Numbered from the stretch's first letter, positions 28,657 through 37,830 are shown. The stretch is DNA of 64,000 nt from Candidatus Epilinea brevis (GCA_016710785.1 JADJUE010000013.1:43007-107006), one strand, 5' to 3'. Notes: generated from the letters alone by a model not told the origin. Numbers and translations are program-made.

Positions 28657-29565
28657 TCAGCCTGGCACGCCAAGCAGCCGCCCGAATGCCTCTGCCAGCT
28701 CGAAGGCCGCGCGTACGTTGCGCGGGTCGCGGCTGTTGATGTACTCCACGTTGACGCCGAGGCGGTCGGCGGGGATGCCGATCTCGCCGGCAAAAGTGGA
28801 GAGGCGCTCCCAGATCAGGGTCAGCTGGGCCATGGAGGCCTCGGCCATGTTGCGCGCGCCGCGCAGCATGCGCTCCACGTCGGGCGGCACGTAGACGCCC
28901 AGGTACTTCACCGCGAAGTTCAGGTCTTCTTCGCAGACGAAGGGCGAGAAGGTCAGGAAGAGCTTGGGGAAGTCCTCGGGGGCCAGGGCGCGGGTCATGT
29001 CCATCAGCAGGCAGCTCATCCACTCGGCTTCATAGAGCAGCTGGGTGGAGAAGAAGCGCATGCCCCAGGTATGGATCTTGTCCTGGATGCGCGCGATCTC
29101 GTCGAGCGTGGCCGGGCGGCCGACGAACTCGCGGCGGCGAGTAGGGATGATGATGCCCCCGCAATGGAAGCCGCGGCGCATGGCCGCCTTGGTACCGCCG
29201 CCCACCGAGAGCACTTCGTCGCCGTAGTCCTTGCCGCTGGTGTCGCCGCCCACCACGAAGACGTCGCCGCAGCCCAGCTCGGCGGCCCGCTCCAGCCAGC
29301 TGTCGAGGCTCGGGCGAGGTGTGGCCACGGCAACCTTGTAGAGGCAGAGCGGCCGGTCGCTACGCTCCCTCAGCCAGGCCGCGAACTCCAGGCTGCCCAC
29401 CCGCCGCCGCGACCGCCCGAACTCCGCCGAGTCCTGGATGTCCGGAACGCCCAGCACCTGATACCGCGTGTAGGCCTTCAGGCTTTCCTCCAGGATGGCG
29501 TATGCCTGGTCCTGGTGGGCGACCAGGGGCGGGCAGGCCTCCAGGACGACGCGAGCGGAGGCCAT
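28657..29565 (-). CDS. Methylenetetrahydrofolate reductase (MetF)-family protein, putative
   Basis: Weak but colinear similarity to MetF: VFVVGGDTSG resembles ALRGD, FFSTQLLYEAEWM resembles ITQFFFDVESY, and IIIPTRR resembles the AAYPE region. The start is uncertain; ATG 29565 or 29592. Confidence 0.4.
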   Translation of the reverse strand: MASARVVLEACPPLVAHQDQAYAILEESLKAYTRYQVLGVPDIQDSAEFGRSRRRVGSLEFAAWLRERSDRPLCLYKVAVATPRPSLDSWLERAAELGCGDVFVVGGDTSGKDYGDEVLSVGGGTKAAMRRGFHCGGIIIPTRRREFVGRPATLDEIARIQDKIHTWGMRFFSTQLLYEAEWMSCLLMDMTRALAPEDFPKLFLTFSPFVCEEDLNFAVKYLGVYVPPDVERMLRGARNMAEASMAQLTLIWERLSTFAGEIGIPADRLGVNVEYINSRDPRNVRAAFELAEAFGRLLGVPG

Positions 29566-29664
29566 GGCAGAGGGGAGGGGACTGGGGGGCATGGGGGGGA
29601 ATTGTAGACGATCTCGTTCCACGCCTGCCCTGCTATGATCCCTCCCGCCCAGGAGACTAGCCCC

Positions 29665-32569
29665 ATGTCCGAGCGATCCGCGAAGCCTCCCCTTCTCCTC
29701 CTCGTCGATGGTCATGCCTTGGCCTATCGGGCCTACCATGCCCTGCGCGAACCCATGAGCGCTCCCGATGGCGAGCCTACCGGCGCCACCTTCGGCTTCA
29801 CCAACATGCTTCTGGCCGCGTTGAACACCCATCGCCCCACGCATCTGGCGGTGGCCTTCGACCGTGGCAGGAGTGGGCGGGAGGCGCTGTATCCGCCCTA
29901 CAAGGCCAACCGCGCCGAGCGGCCGCCGGAGCTCGACGTGCAGCTGCAGCGCATCGCAGAAATCGTGGCTGCGTTCAACATCCCCGTTTACACCCTGGAT
30001 GGTTTCGAGGCGGATGACGTGCTGGGTACCTTGACCGCGCAGGCCGAAACGGCGGGGGTGGACAGCCTGGTCATCACCGGGGACAGCGATCTCCTGCAGA
30101 TGGTAGGCCCGCATACGCGCGTGGCGATCAGTGGCCGGCGCATGTCGGAAGTGGAGATCTACGACGCCGCCCGGGTTCGCGAGCGCTATGGTGTCGAACC
30201 GGTCGACCTGGCGGAGTGGAAGGGCCTCAAGGGGGACAGCTCGGACAACATCCTCGGCGTCAGCGGCATCGGCGAAAAGGGTGCAACCGAACTGATCCAA
30301 GCCCATGGAACAGTGGATGGAGTGCTCGCCGCCGCGCCCGGATTCAAGCCCGGACGCCTGCGCGACAACCTGATCGCCCAGGCGGATCAGGCGCGCCTCT
30401 CAGCCCGCCTCTGCCGCATCATGCGCGACCTGCCCGTCACCCTGGATATGGAGCAGGTGGCGCTCACCGGTTATGATCGGGAGGCGGTGTTGGCCATCTT
30501 CCGCCGCTTGTCCTTTCGCAACCTCATGGATCGCTTGCCGGCCCTCGACGCTTCCGCGCCTGGTGACGCCCCGGCCGCTCCGGCGCCGGCCGCGCCGTCG
30601 GGCGACTACCGCCTGGTCGCCGATCTGGCCGAGCTGGAGGACCTGACGGCGACGTGGGCCGCAGCCCCCCGCCTGGCGTTTGACACCGAAACCACCGGCG
30701 TGGACCCCATGCGCGCCCGGCTGGTGGGCATCGCCATCTCGGATGCGGTGGGGCGGGGCTGGTACATCGCGGTGGGCCATGGTGCGACGGCTGCGGAAGG
30801 GGATCCGTCCGCGGCGCCGGCCGCCCATGCGCAGCTGACCATGGACTTCGGCGTCGGCGCGACCGGAGCCGGCGCCGGCGGCGGGGGCCAACGCCACCGA
30901 TCCGCTCGATGGTCCACCTGACGGTGATCCGCCGGCTGCGCTCCCCGATCGCAATCTCCCATGGGCCGAGGTGCTCAGGTTGCTGGGTCCGGTGCTGCAG
31001 GGGCCGGCCATCAAGGTGGCTCACCATGCCAAGTACGATCTGACCGTTCTGCTGCGCGCCGGCCTGCCGGTGTCCGCACCGGTCTTCGACACCCTGGTGG
31101 CAGCCTGGCTGGTGGATCCGGGACGGCGCGGTCTGGGTCTCAAGGACCTGGCCTTTACCGAACTGGGCGTGGAGATGACGCCCATCTCGGCGTTGATCGG
31201 CAAGGGCAAGGGGCAGCGGACGATGGCTGAGGTGGACCCCGTCGATGCGGCGGCCTATGCCGGGGCCGATGTGGACATGACGCTCCGCCTGGCGCATTGG
31301 GCGGCGCCGCACTTGGAAGAACGCGGGGCGCGGGAACTCTTCGAGCAGCTGGAGATGCCCCTGATGTGGGTGCTGGCGGAGATGGAGCGCACCGGCATCC
31401 GCGTGGACGCCGAGGTGCTGGCGGAGATCGCCCGGGACCTCAACGCGCGGGCGGCGGCCCTGGAGGACCAGATCTTCGCGGGCGTTGGGCATCGCTTCAA
31501 CCTGGCTTCTCCCAAGCAGCTCTCAGAGGTGCTGTTCGGCGAGCTGGGCATCCCGCCCACGCGCAAGACGGACACCGGCTTCTCCACCAACGCCGACGCC
31601 CTGGCGGACCTGGCGGCGCAGTACCCCATCATCCAGACCATCCAGGACCACCGGCATGTACGCAAGCTCCTGGGTACCTATGTGGAAGCCCTGCCGCTCA
31701 TGATCAACTACGAGACCCTGCGCATTCACACCAGCTGGCAGCAAACAGGCACCGTGACCGGGCGCCTGTCGTCTACCGAACCCAACCTGCAGAACATTCC
31801 GGTGCGCTCCGAGTTGGGCGGCCAGATCCGCCGGGCCTTCGTGGCGGAGCAGGGCTGGCTGATCCTGGCGGCGGACTACAGTCAGATGGAGTTGCGTATC
31901 CTGGCGGCGCTCTCGGGCGACGAAGCGCTTACGGCCGTCTACGCCGAGGGTGGCGACGTGCACGCCGACACGGCGGCCTACCTGTTCCAGAAAGACCCGT
32001 CGGCAGTGACCGCCAATGAGCGCCGTCTGGCCAAGATCGTCAACTTCGGCATCGTCTACGGCATGGGCGCCTTCGGCCTCTCGCGTTCGACGGGCTGGTC
32101 GCGGTCGGAGTCGGCCGCCTTCATCGACCGCTACTTCACGCGCTACGCGGGGGTCAAGGCCTATTTCGACCGCCAGCTGGCGGACTGCGCCCAGACTGGC
32201 TACGTGTCCACCTTGCTGGGCCGCCGCCGCTACTTCCCGATGCTGCGCGAAGGCTCGGGTGTCGATGCCAACACAAGGGCGCGAATGGAGCGGGAAGCCC
32301 TCAACGCCCCCATTCAGGGTGGGGCCGCAGACATCACCAAACGGGCGATGATCGACTTGTCGGCAGCGCTCAAGGTGGGCGGCTATCGCGCCCGGCTGCT
32401 GCTGCAGGTCCACGATGAACTGTTGCTCGAGGTCCCCCCCGATGAGATCGACGCCGTGGCGGCGCTGACGCGGGCCATCATGACCGGCTGCGTGCCGCTG
32501 CCGGGCGTGTCGCTGGCGGTGGATGTCGCGGTCGGGGTGAACTGGGGGGAGCTGGTGCGGGTGACTTGA
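29665..32569 (+). CDS. polA: DNA polymerase I, interrupted by an apparent +1 frameshift between the Exo I and Exo II motifs
   Basis: AGGAG RBS. The 5'-3' exonuclease part has LLLVDGHALAYRAYHA and GIGEKGA. Exo I is LAFDTETTG. The frame-1 stop is at 30919-30921. The colinear remainder continues in frame 2 from about 30839: Exo II KVAHHAKYD, then RRAFVA, LILAADYSQMELR, KIVNFGIVYG and LLQVHDELLLE. A G5 run at 30883-30887 lies in the 80-bp window where the frames must switch. Confidence 0.8.
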
Positions 32570-32639: not shown

Positions 32640-33746
32640 CTACCCGAACCACCGACCCACGCCCGCCGCACCCAACCCGTCCGCCAGCAGCCGCAGCTTC
32701 TTCTCCGTCTCCACCCAGGTGATGGGCGAGAGGCCCAGGAGTTCGCGGAGGTCGTCGGGGGCGAGGCCCGAGCGCCAGGCGCGCAGGGCCGCGGTCCAGC
32801 GCAGGGTCTCGAAGCTGACCTCGTCACCCAGACCGGCGGCCCGTGCCAGGTCGGCCAGCACGTACTCCAGGTTGCGGTCCGTCCATGGGAAAAGGCGCTC
32901 GGCCGTTCGGTAGCGCAGCAGGTAGGCCGGAAAGAGGCCGGACACCTTGGGCCCAACCGGCACGCGGCGCTCCTTGCGGGCGAAGCGCGGCTGGTCGTAG
33001 CGCACCAGGATGCTGGGCGGGTCCGCATCCAGGTTGAGGTCATCCGTACGTAGACGCACCAACTCACCCTTCTTGAGTCCCGTGTCCAGGAGCAGGCGCA
33101 GCATGAAGGCCGGACGCGGGTCGCGGGCTTCACCGCTGGCCAGTCCGTCCGCGACGGCGAGCAGCGTGGCCGCCTCCCTGTCCGTCAGCACCCGGGCCAG
33201 CGGCGCCTGCGCTCTCCTGTGCACCAGCGTGAGGGCGATGTCTCTTGGCAGAGCCCCGGCTGCGTGCAGCCAGCCGAAGAACACCTTCAGGGTCGTCAGG
33301 CGACGGGCGTAGGTCTTGGGGCTGCAGGGTTCGCCGCGGTACGCCAGCATCCAGGTCAGGAAACGGTTCAGGTCGTCGGTGCTGATGGCTGCCAGCGCCT
33401 TGTCGGGGCCTAGGAACTCTGCTAGCAGCCGCAGGTCGCTGGCGAAGGCGCGCCGCGTGTTGACCGTCTTGGCCAGGCGCCCGAGATGCTCGTCGAAGGC
33501 CGAGGCGGCGCCCTGCAGGCTGCTGGCGGCCGTCGGTATGGGGAGCGGCGCGAGGTAGGGGGAGGGGCTGGTGGCGGTGGAAACCACTGCGTCCGGATCA
33601 CCCTCGCGCGCCGCGGGTAGCGGTTCCTCGTCACCGCCGACCGCGGCGCCCGAGGCTGGTGCCACGGTCGGCAACGACGCAGCCGACGCCGCCTTGGACG
33701 GTGTGTCGAACAACGAGAGCTGTGCTTCGAGCGAACGTTTGTTCAT
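32640..33746 (-). CDS. Tyrosine site-specific recombinase (XerC/XerD-like) with an Ala/Ser/Pro-rich N-terminal extension
   Basis: The N-terminal SAM-like region has TRRAFASDLRLLAEFL. The C-terminal catalytic region has RLLLDTGLKKGELVRL and ETLRWTAALRAW, followed by LRELLGLS. The start is ATG 33746 (MNKRSLE). Confidence 0.65.
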   Translation of the reverse strand: MNKRSLEAQLSLFDTPSKAASAASLPTVAPASGAAVGGDEEPLPAAREGDPDAVVSTATSPSPYLAPLPIPTAASSLQGAASAFDEHLGRLAKTVNTRRAFASDLRLLAEFLGPDKALAAISTDDLNRFLTWMLAYRGEPCSPKTYARRLTTLKVFFGWLHAAGALPRDIALTLVHRRAQAPLARVLTDREAATLLAVADGLASGEARDPRPAFMLRLLLDTGLKKGELVRLRTDDLNLDADPPSILVRYDQPRFARKERRVPVGPKVSGLFPAYLLRYRTAERLFPWTDRNLEYVLADLARAAGLGDEVSFETLRWTAALRAWRSGLAPDDLRELLGLSPITWVETEKKLRLLADGLGAAGVGRWFG

Positions 33747-33804
33747 GCGGGCAGAATAGCAGGCGTCGGTTGGATTGGGAAGCCGGGCCTGCTCCGGCGC
33801 GACC

Positions 33805-35553
33805 CTAGCGCCGCGCCACCATCCGATTGCGCCTGAGGCGCGCCGCGAATCCGCCGTCGATCCCGTGACGCTGCGGCAGGCTGCGGTAGAAGCCCCGTTC
33901 ATCCACCAGGTCGGCCGGGATCAGGCCCGCCGCCGACTCCAGGCCGAAGTCCGGATGGCGCTCCAGGAAGGCGTCCACGCGGGCCTCGTTCTCTTCGGGT
34001 TCCAGGCTGCAGGTGCTGTAGACCAGCAGGCCATCCGGGCGCACCAGGGCCGCCGCCGCATCCAGCATGGCGTCCTGCGTCTTGCACAGGGTCGCCAGGT
34101 CGCCAGGTTCCCGGTTCCAGCGTAGGTCCGCACGACGGGCCATCACGCCGGTGCCGCTGCAGGGGGCGTCCAGGAGGACCCGGTCTGCCTGTCTGGCAAG
34201 CGGTTGGCCGGACTCGTCGCGCAACTCGTGCAAGGAGAGCAGGTCCGCCACCGCGCAGCGGACGCTCTTCAGGCCCAGGCGGGCGGCCGCCGCCTCGATC
34301 AGCTTGACCTTGCCGGGATGTACGTCCAGCGCCAGCACCTGGCCACGGTCCTTCATCAGCTCAGCGGCGTAGGTCGCCTTGCCGCCTGGAGCGGCGCAGA
34401 CGTCGATGATCGACTCGCCGCGTTGAGGGTCGAGCACGCGGACCACCAGCGCCGCAGCCTCGTCCTGCACCACGCAGAGCCCGCGGGTGAGAAGGCCCGC
34501 GGCCAGCACCGGTTGCAGGCGCGTCACCCGGATCAGGTCGTCCGGCAGCCAGGTCGAAGGCTCCTGCGGGGCTTCGAGCTCGGCCAGCTCGCCGGCGACA
34601 TCGGCTACTGTCGTGCGCAGTCGGTTCACCCTCAGCCCGTGGCTGGGTCGGGCGTTGTTCCAGTTGAGCAGGGCGGTCAGCTGATCGATGCCGAAGCGGT
34701 CGCGCCAACGCTTCACCAGCCAGCTGGGATGCGAATGGCGGATGGCCAGGTCTTCCAAAGGATCGCCGGTGGCCGGCTGCGGCAGGTCGTCGCGGCGGTT
34801 GTCCAGGTTGCGCAGCACGGCGTTCACCAAGCCCATCGCCTTCTCCGCGCCGACATCCTTGGCCAGGCTCACCGCCGCGTGAACCGCCGCATGGGGCGGC
34901 GTGGAGGCGTAGAGCAGCTCGTAGATCCCGAGGCGCAGTACCTGGCGCGCCCGCTGATCCAGGTTCTCCGGCTGCCCACTGAACGTGGCGTCGATCAGGT
35001 GGTCCAGCCAGCGCCGCCAACGGGTGACCCCCGCCACATAATCCGTCGCCGTGCGCCGCGCGCCGGGCCCGAGGCCGGCGTCCGGCTCCAGACGGGCCAC
35101 GTAGGCCCTGTCCTCTTCGATGCGCCGCAGCGCGGCCAGGGCCCAGGAGCGGGCGTTGAGCGGGCCTTCTACGTGCAGCCGATCGCCGCGAACCGGCTCC
35201 TCGGCGCCCCCTGCCGAACGGGTATCGGCCACCCGCGACCGGTCCCAAGGACGGGCCGTTCCGCGCTCCTCGCCCATGCCGCGGTGGTCGGGCCGATCGC
35301 CCATCGGCCGTCCGGACTGGGGACGATCACCGCTGGGGCCGCGGCGGTCCGGCCGATCGCTCATCGGCCGACCGGACTGGGGACGATCGCCGCCGGGGCC
35401 GCGGCGGTCGGGGCGGTCGCCCGTGGGGCGTCCGGACTGGGGACGATCACCGCTGGGACCGCGGCGGTCGGGGCGGTCGCCCATCGGCCGTCCGGACTGC
35501 GGGCGATCGCCGCCGGGGCCGCGGCGATCGGGACGGTCGGGTCGGTCGCCCAT
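33805..35553 (-). CDS. rsmB: 16S rRNA (cytosine-C5)-methyltransferase RsmB/Sun with a repetitive N-terminal extension
   Basis: NusB-like and Fmu regions are present, with IDVCAAPGGKAT, VLLDAPCSGTGV and STCSLEPEENE. The N-terminus holds GDRPDRRGP.GDRPQSGRPM repeats. The repeat-encoding frame continues upstream to ATG 36179 after a 14-bp tandem duplication at 35584-35611, so the true CDS may be 33805-36179. Confidence 0.75.
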   Translation of the reverse strand: MGDRPDRPDRRGPGGDRPQSGRPMGDRPDRRGPSGDRPQSGRPTGDRPDRRGPGGDRPQSGRPMSDRPDRRGPSGDRPQSGRPMGDRPDHRGMGEERGTARPWDRSRVADTRSAGGAEEPVRGDRLHVEGPLNARSWALAALRRIEEDRAYVARLEPDAGLGPGARRTATDYVAGVTRWRRWLDHLIDATFSGQPENLDQRARQVLRLGIYELLYASTPPHAAVHAAVSLAKDVGAEKAMGLVNAVLRNLDNRRDDLPQPATGDPLEDLAIRHSHPSWLVKRWRDRFGIDQLTALLNWNNARPSHGLRVNRLRTTVADVAGELAELEAPQEPSTWLPDDLIRVTRLQPVLAAGLLTRGLCVVQDEAAALVVRVLDPQRGESIIDVCAAPGGKATYAAELMKDRGQVLALDVHPGKVKLIEAAAARLGLKSVRCAVADLLSLHELRDESGQPLARQADRVLLDAPCSGTGVMARRADLRWNREPGDLATLCKTQDAMLDAAAALVRPDGLLVYSTCSLEPEENEARVDAFLERHPDFGLESAAGLIPADLVDERGFYRSLPQRHGIDGGFAARLRRNRMVARR

Positions 35554-35830
35554 CGGCCGTCCGGACTGCGGGCGATCGCCGCTGGGGCCGCGGCGGTGGG
35601 GCCGCGGCGGTCGGGACGGTCGGGGCGGTCGCCCGTGGGGCGTCCGGACTGGGGACGATCACCGCTGGGACCGCGGCGGTCGGGGCGGTCGGGTCGGTCG
35701 CCCATCGGCCGCCCGGACTGCGGGCGATCGCCGCCGGGACCGCGGCGGTCTGGACGGTCGGGACGGTCGCTCGTCGGTCGTCCGGACTGGGGCCGTTCAC
35801 TACCAGGACCGCGGCGGTCTGGACGGTTGC
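35270..35830. repeat. Coding tandem repeat array (60/66-bp units, ~9 copies) inside the rsmB 5' region
   Basis: Units such as catcggccgtccggactggggacgatcaccgctggggccgcggcggtcgg... recur with a 60-bp period and encode a 20-aa GDRPDRRGPSGDRPQSGRPM-type repeat. Confidence 0.6.
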
Positions 35831-36168
35831 CCATCGGCAGTCGCGGTCGGGTCCGATGTGAAGGACCGTAGGGTCGCGGTGCGGGAGGCGGCAGGTCAGT
35901 TTTCGTTTCGGACCGCGGGGCCGAAAGGTCGGGGGCCGGCTCTACGGCATCCGCCGGGTCTGCCTTCCTGGCTTTCGGCCGGTCGGCGGATGGCGGCTTG
36001 GCTTCGGCGCCCTGCTTTGGAGAGCCAGCCGCGATTGCGTTTGCGGCCACCGGCATTGGCCCGGAACCACGAGGCTTCTTCTTGACTACCGTTTCCGGCA
36101 AGCCGGCCGATTCGCCGTCCGTCGGTCTGTTCTTGGGCACCGCTTTGCGGCGGCGCGGCGTGTTTCCT

Positions 36169-37830
36169 TCAGCGGCCATCGACGAGTACCTTCAGCATTG
36201 TGGGCTCACGGTCCGGTAGCATGCGGGCGGACACGGTGAGGAGAATGAGGTAGAGGACCGACCCGTAGATCAACGCGGCCAGGATGCATGCTGGGAGCCA
36301 TGACGGCCGCAAGAGCGCGGCGGCGACAAGGACGCCCATGGACGGGGCCAGGAGCAGGGGGCTGCCGAAGAGGATGACCAGCACGCCGGCGAAGCTCGAC
36401 TGGTTGGTCTCCGCTCGGCCGCGTTCCAGGTCGACATAGGTTGGAAAACGCACGCTGCACAACTGGCCCAGGCCGGTGATCACCAGACCCGCGGCCGCTG
36501 CGGCTGACAGGATGAGGAGCGGCGCCAGAAGCGACGGTCGAGCAAGATAACTGCCTGCTGCGCAGGCCAAGGCGATGACGCCGGTGGTCACGAGCTGCAG
36601 CAGGCCATGGCTGAACAGGATCAGGTGGCGCGGAGCGGGGCTGGCCAGCAGCGTGCCCGTGCCCACATGGTCATACATTCCGAAGCGGTTGTTGCCCATG
36701 CTGCCGCTGACAAAGCCGGCCATGCCCCCGATGGCCAGGGCGATCAAAGCCGGTGGCGCGTGCTCCATGTCGGCTGATCGGCTGACCTGCCAGGCCATGA
36801 AGCCGAAGAGGATGGGCACGATCGAAAGCCGCAGCGTCATCGGGCTGCGCTGCAGGGTCAGCCAGTCCTTGCGCAACAGGCCCCAAAGGATCCGGCTGCG
36901 CTGGGCGCCCAGACCGGGCAGAATCGGCCGTTCGCGGAGCGTGCCGGCAGGGCCGGTTGCCATGGCCCCGCCGCGAAGCAGGTCGCCCCAAAGCAGGCGG
37001 CGCAGCAGCAGCAGTTGCAGTGGCACCAGGGCGGCCCCCAGAACCGCCAGCAGCAAGGTCATGGCCATCCACGCGCCCATGTCGCCGCGCGACAGACTCA
37101 GGAGGGCGTGGGCGGCCCAGCCGGCAGGTAGCCAGGTGGCCAGCTTGGTCGACAGAGCGTCGGGCCGGAAGAAGCCCGGCGAGCTGTTGGCGGCCATCCG
37201 TTGCAGACCCATCTGATCGAAATAGACCACCAAGAAGCCAACCATCAGCAGAAATGACGCGAGCGTGCGCAGGCGACGATCCTCACTGGCCAGGTCGGCC
37301 AGCAAGGTGGATACTGCTTTCAGGGTCAGCATGATCCACCCGACCAGCACCATTGTCAGGAGGGCGGCCATGGTCTGGATAGGACCGCGAGCCGTGCCCA
37401 GGGCAGCGGCCAACAGTACGGGTGCGCTGATGACGCCCAACAGGCTGAACAGGCCGCTGAACTGTCCGCCCAAGGCCAGGCTCAGCAAGCTCAACGGCTG
37501 GTGCAGCAGCCGCAGGTAACCCACGTTTTCGAGAAGCGGCTGCCCCGTCAGCGGTGCCATGGCCCAGAACATCAACAACGCGCCCATGCCCACGGCCAGG
37601 ATGCGTTCGGCCGTGCCTGGGTCCACCGACCGCAAGGCGATGTAGAGGCCCACCGTGCCCACGGCCAGGTAGGGCAAGGTGCCCAACAGGATCAGTCCGG
37701 TGAGCAGTAGGCGTCCGCGGCTGCGGGCGTCGCCGCGCAGGAGGCCGTTGAGGAGGAGGCGACGTTGCAGCCAGAACAGATGGCCCACCGTCTTCAGGGC
37801 CGCTCCGGCCTCATTCACTCGTCGAGCCAT
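36169..37830 (-). CDS. ABC transporter permease (polytopic membrane protein)
   Basis: The 553-aa product has about 12 hydrophobic helices. It overlaps by 16 nt the stop of the upstream ABC ATPase gene on the same strand. Confidence 0.5.
   Translation of the reverse strand: MARRVNEAGAALKTVGHLFWLQRRLLLNGLLRGDARSRGRLLLTGLILLGTLPYLAVGTVGLYIALRSVDPGTAERILAVGMGALLMFWAMAPLTGQPLLENVGYLRLLHQPLSLLSLALGGQFSGLFSLLGVISAPVLLAAALGTARGPIQTMAALLTMVLVGWIMLTLKAVSTLLADLASEDRRLRTLASFLLMVGFLVVYFDQMGLQRMAANSSPGFFRPDALSTKLATWLPAGWAAHALLSLSRGDMGAWMAMTLLLAVLGAALVPLQLLLLRRLLWGDLLRGGAMATGPAGTLRERPILPGLGAQRSRILWGLLRKDWLTLQRSPMTLRLSIVPILFGFMAWQVSRSADMEHAPPALIALAIGGMAGFVSGSMGNNRFGMYDHVGTGTLLASPAPRHLILFSHGLLQLVTTGVIALACAAGSYLARPSLLAPLLILSAAAAAGLVITGLGQLCSVRFPTYVDLERGRAETNQSSFAGVLVILFGSPLLLAPSMGVLVAAALLRPSWLPACILAALIYGSVLYLILLTVSARMLPDREPTMLKVLVDGR

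Follow-up and report, generated by a model that had tools for sequence, protein, structure and literature searches.

The split rsmB gene of Candidatus Epilinea brevis and the repeat-built N-terminal extension of its product

Between positions 33805 and 36179 of the 64-kb stretch of Candidatus Epilinea brevis DNA analyzed here (the window), the minus strand carries two reading frames, one of which ends in a recognizable RNA methyltransferase and the other of which begins in a region rich in charged residues and tandem repeats. Are these two genes, or one gene that has been broken? And if one gene was broken, did it happen in the cell or in the assembly?

One gene in two frames

The first frame, ORF A (36179..35361, minus strand), encodes 272 amino acids as assembled, starts with MAAEGNTPRRRK, includes VVKKKPRGSGP, and has no matches in Pfam or NCBIfam. 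Its first 195 residues (a head and ~3.4 repeat units) are native; the remaining 77, rich in Ala, Pro, and Thr, are out of frame. The second, ORF B (35553..33805, minus strand; 582 aa), starts at a Met codon within the repeats and spans ~5 repeat units, a linker, and the full core of RsmB. As the preliminary description had it, the two frames meet exactly at a perfect 14-bp tandem duplication, GGGGCCGCGGCGGT twice in succession on the plus strand (35584-35597 and 35598-35611), which shifts the frame within the fourth repeat unit. Removal of one copy produces a single ORF of 2361 nt and 786 aa in which the repeat pattern is unbroken, and the proteins of L012, L013, and L014 have the same length and the same unit architecture as that of the repaired gene. 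ORF A and ORF B are probably one gene, rsmB (33805..36179, minus strand), and not two. Two plus-strand ORFs that run over the array (34204..35871 and 35120..36085) were rejected as antisense artifacts of stop-free, GC-rich repeats.

The core of the repaired protein has three domains in the order canonical for RsmB, all on the minus strand: a NusB-like RNA-binding domain (34804..35157; Pfam PF01029, 88 bits, residues 337-454), an RsmF/B ferredoxin-like domain (34537..34731; PF22458, 54 bits, residues 479-543), and the catalytic domain of an m5C methyltransferase, whose cysteine motifs are DAPCSG and TCS (33832..34437; PF01189, 191 bits, residues 577-778). ORF B exceeds the equivalog cutoffs of two RsmB models (NF011494, 357.3 bits against a cutoff of 319; TIGR00563, 327.4 bits against 269) and scores under the cutoffs of three other lineage-specific equivalog models (NF011493, NF008149, and NF011495). 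It matches E. coli Fmu (1SQF) at 7.8e-52 over residues 6-398, and its catalytic cysteines, C465 and C515 (PC/TC motifs; DAPCSG, STCS), align with those of Fmu and are invariant in 31 homologs. AlphaFold2 gives pLDDT values above 90 in the core, which is 100% identical to P0001 and whose substitutions are 29 synonymous to 4 nonsynonymous. The gene product is thus predicted, from its motifs and domains, to be a bona fide 16S rRNA m5C967 methyltransferase RsmB of ~786 aa.

It has in common with the E. coli enzyme (Fmu/Sun; PDB 1SQF/1SQG), the 16S rRNA m5C967 methyltransferase, the three-part core and both cysteine motifs. The E. coli protein, however, is 429 aa long and has no N-terminal extension, whereas the protein considered here has ~336 additional disordered residues before the NusB-like domain. 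The surroundings of the genes differ as well. In E. coli, rsmB lies in the fmt operon; here it sits downstream of an ABC-type permease, and its start codon overlaps the stop codon of that 553-aa permease-like gene by 11 nt (GTCGATGGCCGCTGA; 36169..36179, minus strand). The same overlap is found in L006, L011, L012-L018, and L023, an arrangement that suggests translational coupling.

The N-terminal extension and its translation

The preliminary description gave RsmB a disordered, repetitive extension of ~270 aa. The extension is real, but its length in the repaired protein is ~336 aa, the smaller figure being that of ORF A with its out-of-frame end. It begins with a non-repetitive head (aa 1-116; 35832..36179, minus strand), rich in Lys, Arg, and Pro, which includes the peptides ADPADAVEPAPDLSAPR and GSGPMPVAANAIAAGSPK and bears a conserved N-terminal motif, MAAEG..PRRRK, common to L006/P0088. 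Then comes a tandem array of eight units with the consensus GDRPDR(PDR)RGPxGDRPQSGRP[MT] (35302..35831, minus strand, extra 14 bp included). The units are 60 or 69 bp each, the periods given by Tandem Repeats Finder (20 and 23 aa), in place of the 60 and 66 bp first reported, and in amino acids they run 20-23-23-23-23-20-20-20. A ninth, degenerate unit and a linker (GDRPDHRGMGEERGTARPWDRSR...; 35158..35301, minus strand) then lead up to the NusB-like domain. The same repeats were not found elsewhere in the 64-kb window.

The disorder expected of the extension is borne out by AlphaFold2, which predicts no secondary structure over the repeats (pLDDT 35-44), with confidence climbing from residue 123 of ORF B. 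Arg makes up 19% of the extension, Pro 19%, Gly 15%, and Asp 11%; the fraction of charged residues is 0.37, the net charge per residue is +0.08, and the mean hydropathy of 0.305 is far under the Uversky boundary of 0.441. By these predictions, the extension is disordered, net positive, and low in hydrophobicity in the manner of the Arg-rich disordered class, which is a functional class and not a homology family.

Is this long stretch in fact translated? In relatives at 83% identity (proteins of 665 and 714 aa) and at 62% (711 aa), the extension is present in frame, and its start codon overlaps the stop codon of the permease gene. The repeats of these relatives have diverged in sequence, yet the GDR..RRGP-type peptide motif and the composition are shared though the DNA differs. 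Among conspecific assemblies, the array varies from 5 to 9 units. A scan of a genome collection added one further relative at 83% and an unrelated RsmB from Clostridiales, with no conspecific genome among its matches. Within the head, just one of the six frames is free of stop codons, namely that of RsmB, and segregating codons in the head have a synonymous to nonsynonymous ratio of 6:5 in the RsmB frame; read in the two alternative frames, they give 3:9 and 0:12. It is probable from these comparisons that the extension is conserved in this activated-sludge lineage of Chloroflexota, growing and shrinking by whole units.

Gene callers (Prodigal-type and PGAP) place the start downstream in most assemblies, giving proteins of 490, 499, or 519 aa even when the long ORF is intact, and in Nocardia, NCBI annotates short forms of RsmB where other callers give 715 aa. 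Perhaps, then, RsmB really starts at an internal Met, and the upstream 860 bp is a GC-rich leader open by chance, in which case the duplication would be without effect on the protein. The called starts, the short Nocardia forms, and the openness of the array in all three frames fit this view, as does the lack in the extension of the GC3 bias of the core (0.69-0.77 as compared to 0.88 by frame plot, in a region whose amino acid composition forces high GC1 and GC2). Nonetheless, we consider a chance leader improbable. It would have to have stayed open, from an ATG that overlaps the stop of the permease, in three lineages whose extensions have diverged (786, 665/714, and 711 aa), to have kept its peptide motif while its DNA changed, and to be open in the head in the RsmB frame only, the same frame in which synonymous changes are enriched. 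Moreover, the lengths of the units are multiples of three and all copy-number variants are in frame, and an untranslated extension would leave neither intergenic space nor a separate promoter region behind the permease. Translation of the full extension as part of RsmB is well supported by the sequence comparisons, falling short of proven because the extension has no core-like GC3 signature and the callers start downstream. Gene callers systematically drop a conserved extension of ~290-340 aa: the proteins they report have 490-519 aa, although the open frames extend over 720-809 aa.

Origin of the 14-bp duplication

The 14-mer GGGGCCGCGGCGGT occurs four times in the window, always inside the array (0 occurrences expected by chance), and the copies that make up the duplication are the only adjacent pair among the four. 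In every one of the eight conspecific assemblies whose sequence crosses the region (98.5-99.9% identical), rsmB is one unbroken ORF of 720-809 aa (lengths of 720, 743, 809, and, in three cases, 786). Of the conspecific contigs, 12 show the junction in single copy and none shows the duplication; gaps of exactly 14 nt appear in alignments of the window with L001, L003, L004, and L005; and a metagenome scan encountered the duplicated 28-mer junction not once, against two occurrences of the single-copy one. The window also carries a second private frameshift, an additional G in polA, which is intact everywhere else, and the site of that insertion carries a 12-bp strain length polymorphism. Both lesions lie at sites where strains vary in length, suggesting an error of consensus. 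The array itself is evidently hard to assemble, since many short-read contigs end inside it; such breaks within the rsmB repeats are routine in short-read assemblies.

The duplication, private to this assembly, is most likely a consensus or assembly error in an array whose length differs between co-occurring strains, and not a regulatory or phase-variable device. Taken jointly with what was said above of one gene, of a bona fide RsmB, and of a conserved extension that changes by whole units, we give this account somewhat better than even chances. Of the two origins that the preliminary description proposed for the frameshift, the evidence favors assembly error over a natural or phase-variable event. 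The same description would have been contradicted by relatives that lack any extension together with a different repeat number lacking the duplication; relatives do have the extension, and other assemblies do differ in repeat number and are without the duplication.

Phase variation would make of the array a contingency locus, where reversible gain and loss of 14 bp toggles the long isoform of RsmB or the enzyme itself, or else the ribosome might bypass the shift by programmed frameshifting. The number of units is truly unstable (5 to 9), and slippage is generally known to be able to revert a tandem duplication. However, every length variant observed consists of whole 60- or 69-bp units and is therefore in frame. 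A phase-variable locus should present recurring alleles both in and out of frame, but the out-of-frame allele is found in the window only: none of the ~20 other contigs, which derive from different samples, carries it, nor does any metagenome contig. Next to the repeats of known contingency loci, two copies of a 14-mer form a poor tract for slippage, and a device missing from all conspecifics is not an evolved mechanism. Programmed frameshifting in particular was ruled out, as ORF A and the relevant interval contain no X_XXY_YYZ slippery heptamer and the relatives have a single frame. We regard a contingency locus as very improbable indeed.

A more serious possibility is that the duplication is real, a slipped-strand or template-switch mutation that arose recently and became fixed in one strain. 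RsmB would then be truncated after 195 native residues, with the enzyme lost or made only through inefficient re-initiation at the internal Met, and rsmB would be on its way to becoming a pseudogene. A perfect tandem copy with 1 nt of microhomology, in repeat-rich sequence containing a palindrome (CCGCGG), is a plausible substrate for slippage, and occasional private indels occur in other assemblies as well (L014/L026 and L015). Since rsmB is dispensable in E. coli, where deletion strains have been used (PMC3831192), a real knockout would be tolerated. Against this stand the absence of the duplication from every other assembly and metagenome contig of the species, its being accompanied by the private frameshift in polA, and the coincidence of both lesions with exactly those sites that vary among strains, as a mis-polished consensus of mixed strains might give. 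Furthermore, the core downstream shows no decay, as the identities and substitutions given above attest. We think a real mutation possible but doubtful.

Over a further 21 kb of the window (40.5-61.7 kb), there are no private indels. A systematically error-ridden assembly is thereby ruled out, both lesions being local, and the cleanness of those ~21 kb has to be counted in favor of a real mutation and against error. So too must it be counted against error that a perfect 14-bp duplication is atypical of homopolymer-type mistakes. When this assembly is annotated, it would be best to regard the breaks in rsmB and polA as probably due to sequence error or as private lesions, and not as biology.

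Possible function of the extension and its likenesses

What might the extension do for an rRNA methyltransferase? The tail, as a net-positive polyampholyte, would provide nonspecific electrostatic affinity for 16S rRNA or for intermediates in the assembly of the 30S subunit, and it would lengthen the reach of the NusB-like domain, much as the arginine-rich N-terminal domains of eukaryotic Nop2/p120 may do. That the tail adds nonspecific affinity for rRNA seems the most likely function by analogy with p120/Nop2, Rho, and Arg-rich low-complexity regions; in the literature on bacterial RsmB, we found no paper that describes an N-terminal extension or links a tail to RNA binding.

The best functional analogy is with Nop2/p120 (NSUN1), rRNA m5C methyltransferases of the NOL1/NOP2/Sun family. 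Their catalytic domain is homologous (8FKT chain SY, 6e-32; 8ESQ; 6ELZ), and in front of it lies a long N-terminal stretch of ~220-370 aa. The N-terminal region of p120 is arginine-rich and binds rRNA, and the N-terminal domain of Nop2 suffices by itself for rRNA binding (PMC4510066). The N-terminal domains of these proteins differ in having no GDRP-type tandem repeats, in carrying nuclear and nucleolar targeting signals, and in serving a large-subunit rRNA substrate. There is no evidence for common ancestry of the two kinds of tail, hence the likeness is considered convergent.

Rho of Actinomycetota and Bacteroidota offers a second parallel. Its disordered insertions or extensions are similar in composition (rich in Arg, Asp, and Gly), lie on a conserved RNA-binding enzyme, and align poorly across lineages; Arg-rich insertions were shown to raise the affinity of Rho for RNA in M. 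tuberculosis and M. luteus, and a disordered insertion to drive phase separation of Rho in B. thetaiotaomicron (PMC11347177). The enzyme is a different one, though, with its insertions within or before the RNA-binding domain, and the passages on these insertions describe no variation in the copy number of tandem repeats.

The preliminary description called so highly charged a tail unusual. It is less so than it appeared: RsmB proteins of several lineages have N-terminal extensions rich in Arg, Asp, Pro, and Gly, and bacterial proteins of RNA processing are documented to have low-complexity regions enriched in Arg (PMC6821194). About half of the seemingly extended RsmB matches in a search with the core alone look eukaryotic or organellar, having transit-peptide-like or unrelated N-termini, and these were excluded from the parallels. 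The tail of RsmB adds a well-documented case of a repeat-built, Arg-rich disordered tail, variable in copy number, on an enzyme of ribosome biogenesis, comparable to the disordered insertions of Rho and to the N-terminal domains with which Nop2/p120 bind rRNA. Should it bind rRNA, the tail could be a simple system in which to study how disordered regions in bacteria tune the targeting of enzymes to RNA, a modest and testable hypothesis and no surprise.

One might go further and suppose the tail to be a convergent bacterial counterpart of the arginine-rich rRNA-binding domain of Nop2/p120, tuning the engagement of RsmB with nascent 30S subunits or RNA-rich condensates, the variation from 5 to 9 units acting as an adaptive dial and the GDRP-type arrays on other proteins reflecting a grammar of ribosome-associated disordered regions shared by GC-rich bacteria. 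We offer this only tentatively and think it rather unlikely. GDRP-type tandem repeats of like composition do occur in the N-region of IF2 (P0071) and in the C-terminal tail of an RluB-type pseudouridine synthase (P0068), but these are other host proteins in other organisms, and the likeness is compositional or convergent, not the sign of a shared module. IF2 is also the bacterial protein in which low-complexity regions are most often found (PMC6821194).

The split rsmB frame

In the window, rsmB (the gene for the 16S rRNA m5C967 methyltransferase) is divided on the minus strand between two overlapping pieces: ORF A (36179..35361, 272 aa) and ORF B (35553..33805, 582 aa), the latter beginning within a tandem repeat array and running on into RsmB. 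ORF A starts with MAAEGNTPRRRKAVPKNRPT, contains VVKKKPRGSGP, continues through GDRPDR...GDRPQSGRP repeats, and finishes in an Ala/Pro/Thr-rich stretch. On the plus strand, positions 35584-35611 consist of GGGGCCGCGGCGGT twice, in perfect tandem. Deleting one 14-bp copy fuses the frames into a single ORF of 2361 nt (786 aa), with the repeat pattern unbroken over the junction. The preliminary description, based on sequence alone, thus read the ORFs, the repeats, and the duplication joining the frames correctly. It was also right that a disordered extension precedes the NusB-like domain, but the length in the repaired protein is ~336 aa rather than ~270 aa, and of the two repeat periods it gave, 60 bp stands while 66 bp does not, Tandem Repeats Finder giving 60 and 69 bp.

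The array (35302..35831, minus strand) can be parsed from the protein into units of 20-23-23-23-23-20-20-20 aa, followed by a degenerate ninth unit. It is open in all three sense frames. There are four copies of the 14-mer in the window, all inside the array (0 expected by chance), and those at 35584-35611 form the only adjacent pair. Two plus-strand ORFs antisense to the array and core, 34204-35871 (555 aa) and 35120-36085 (321 aa), were dismissed as artefacts that arise because the GC-rich repeats lack stops.

The comparison drew on ~20 conspecific contigs from different samples (several of them activated-sludge metagenomes), with nucleotide identities of 98.5-99.9%. Close members of the protein cluster carry the names of Chloroflexota MAGs ('Anaerolineae bacterium', 'Ardenticatenia bacterium'). 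Eight contigs cover the region from end to end (L012-L018 and L023, among them GCA_044326675.1, GCA_963851905.1, and GCA_016709185.1), and in every one rsmB is a single ORF, from the ATG overlapping the stop of the upstream permease gene through to the RsmB stop (786, 786, 786, 720, 809, 809, 720, and 743 aa). Four further contigs (L001, L003, L004, L005), aligned with the window at base level, show a gap of exactly 14 nt where the duplication lies. The exact single-copy junction is found in 12 conspecific contigs and the duplicated 28-mer in none. Nor did the duplicated junction appear in a scan of the metagenome collection, where the single-copy junction, serving as a control, was found twice. 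An independent 786-aa protein (P0081) is on record, as is a partial protein (P0074) in frame across the junction. From the intact ORFs, the single-copy junctions, the 14-nt gaps, and the outcome of the metagenome scan, the out-of-frame allele is private to the window's assembly. The eight spanning contigs have 5, 6, 8, or 9 repeat units, and since the remaining length differences comprise whole 60/69-bp units, they are in frame. With all other variants in whole units and the out-of-frame allele private, the natural or phase-variable frameshift suggested at the outset finds no support. Programmed frameshifting was rejected as well: no slippery heptamer was found, and the conspecifics have a single frame.

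Assembly error or mutation

In the ~38 kb that could be compared, exactly two indels are both private to the window and frame-breaking: the 14 bp in rsmB and one extra G in polA (29635-32569, plus strand; indel at about 30877), where the window reads GCGCCGGCGG and six other assemblies GCGCC-GCGG. The extra base leaves ORFs of 428 and 532 aa, and its deletion restores one of 977 aa; PolA is intact in all other conspecific assemblies, at 967 or 971 aa. At the frameshift site itself (about 30870-30890), strains differ naturally by an in-frame 12 bp (L004, L012, L013); this length polymorphism lies in a Gly/Ala-rich linker and distinguishes the 967- and 971-aa strain haplotypes. Both lesions therefore sit where co-occurring strains differ in length, one in the repeat array and the other in the polA linker. 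Moreover, most short-read metagenome contigs from this species and from the relative with 83% core identity stop inside the array (L001-L005, L007-L010, L019-L022, L024, L031, L032). The array is thus a systematic breakpoint and hard to assemble, and some of the differences in copy number may themselves be assembly collapse.

Because of the position of both lesions and the difficulty of the array, a mis-resolved consensus of mixed strains is the likelier cause of the 14-bp duplication, with moderate confidence. The alternative of an assembly error in the array, which the preliminary description had raised, is to that same extent favoured. The window's assembly is not generally poor, since no private indels were found at 40.5-61.7 kb against five comparators. 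It is possible, if somewhat doubtful, that the duplication is instead a genuine recent mutation: a perfect 14-bp duplication does not belong to the classic sequencing errors, and deletion of rsmB is possible in E. coli (PMC3831192). The frameshift, the most striking element of the locus, is nonetheless probably an artefact, a lesion private to this assembly. The window's assembly is not alone in carrying an occasional frame-breaking indel: one conspecific assembly (L014/L026, GCA_963851905.1) has private 1-bp indels of its own, equivalent to positions 29399 and 51892 of the window, and one of them leaves a gene of 302-311 aa divided into pieces of 68 and 247 aa.

Conservation and translation of the extension

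Alignment of rsmB with relatives, proposed in the preliminary description, finds the extension kept in frame at 83% core identity (L006, 665 aa; P0088, 714 aa) and at 62% (P0003/L011, 711 aa, GCA_009612835.1), in both cases from the same permease-overlapping ATG. The repeats of these relatives have diverged in sequence (GDRPERRGPAGQRTDARRPT; GDRERRGPEGDRRPRPAGA), with a GDR..RRGP-type motif and composition in common. Relatives at ~55% identity have proteins of 445-476 aa and no extension.

The gene order, too, is the same as far as the 62% relative: ECF sigma factor, a 146-aa gene, ABC ATPase, permease, rsmB, Xer-like recombinase, and, on the opposite strand, polA. The cluster of ECF sigma factor, ABC ATPase, and permease is an unusual setting for rsmB. 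The permease-like gene (36169-37830, minus strand) encodes a multi-pass protein of 553 aa with no Pfam or NCBIfam match, and its stop overlaps the start of rsmB by 11 nt. On the 3' side lies a tyrosine recombinase (32640-33902, minus strand; 368 aa as called in other assemblies). It scores 78 bits against the 330 of the XerC/XerD equivalog cutoffs and follows rsmB in all relatives, which makes it a diverged Xer-like gene fixed in the chromosome and no obvious mobile-element integrase.

The head, the non-repetitive first 116 aa of the extension (35832..36179), is free of stops only in the RsmB frame, out of six. Among its segregating codons, the ratio of synonymous to nonsynonymous changes is 6:5 in the RsmB frame, versus 3:9 and 0:12 in the two others; for the core, the within-species ratio is 29:4. 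As a caveat, GC3 is 0.69-0.77 in the extension versus 0.88 in the core, whose signature is missing from the extension. Translation of the extension over its full length is well supported, though short of proof; tryptic peptides predicted from the head are ADPADAVEPAPDLSAPR, GSGPMPVAANAIAAGSPK, and TDLPPPAPRPYGPSHR. Gene callers, those behind NCBI records included (L013-L018, L023), usually begin RsmB so as to give 490, 499, or 519 aa, although 720-809 aa are open, and so the conserved extension is systematically under-annotated. The tail is genuine, and mildly surprising at most.

An ordinary core and a charged tail

The core is an ordinary RsmB. Pfam domains follow in canonical order (NusB, 88 bits; RsmF/B ferredoxin-like, 54 bits; Methyltr_RsmB-F, 191 bits), the NCBIfam equivalog cutoffs are exceeded (NF011494, 357 bits versus 319; TIGR00563, 327 bits versus 269), and E. 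coli Fmu (1SQF) is matched at 7.8e-52. Both catalytic cysteine motifs are there, invariant in 31 homologs, and all testable defining features of the family were found.

The extension has no Pfam or NCBIfam match. It is 19% Arg, 19% Pro, 15% Gly, and 11% Asp, with a charged-residue fraction of 0.37, a net charge per residue of +0.08, and a hydropathy far under the boundary between order and disorder. In the AlphaFold2 model (31 sequences), the repeats are predicted to lack secondary structure, at pLDDT 35-44, while the core exceeds 90; together with the low hydropathy, this agrees with the disorder first presumed. By analogy, the tail may act as a non-specific electrostatic tether to rRNA, prolonging the NusB-like domain. 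Arg is enriched in low-complexity regions of bacterial RNA-processing proteins (PMC6821194); in Rho, Arg-rich disordered insertions lead to higher RNA affinity or phase separation (PMC11347177); and in p120, of the same family, an arginine-rich N-terminal domain binds rRNA, as the N-terminal domain of Nop2 suffices to do by itself (PMC4510066). Alternatively, part of the tail's length may be neutral, GC-driven repeat expansion.

No description of an N-terminal extension on RsmB was found in the literature. The architecture is the unusual part of RsmB here, but databases already contain such proteins, and the phenomenon as such is known. A survey free of repeat bias, because the query was the core only, gave ~20 sequences with N-terminal extensions of at least 70 aa among the 150 top-ranking cluster representatives of RsmB, about half of the ~20 being eukaryotic- or organellar-looking. 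Seven of the ~20 are bacterial and have a charged N-terminus of low complexity, which in four cases is Arg-rich like the window's tail; a tandem-repeat build is visible in the N-termini of P0095, P0120, and P0137. A full-length search brought up comparable tails in Pseudonocardia, a Nocardia cluster, and further lineages. In one of these clusters, that of P0066 from an unrelated RsmB lineage, members of 452, 464, 595, 637, 677, 697, 736, and 837 aa suggest variable repeat arrays mixed with inconsistent start calls. In other organisms, GDRP-type tandem repeats similar to the RsmB tail are found on an RluB-like pseudouridine synthase (P0068, in its C-terminal tail) and on an IF2 (P0071, in its N-region).
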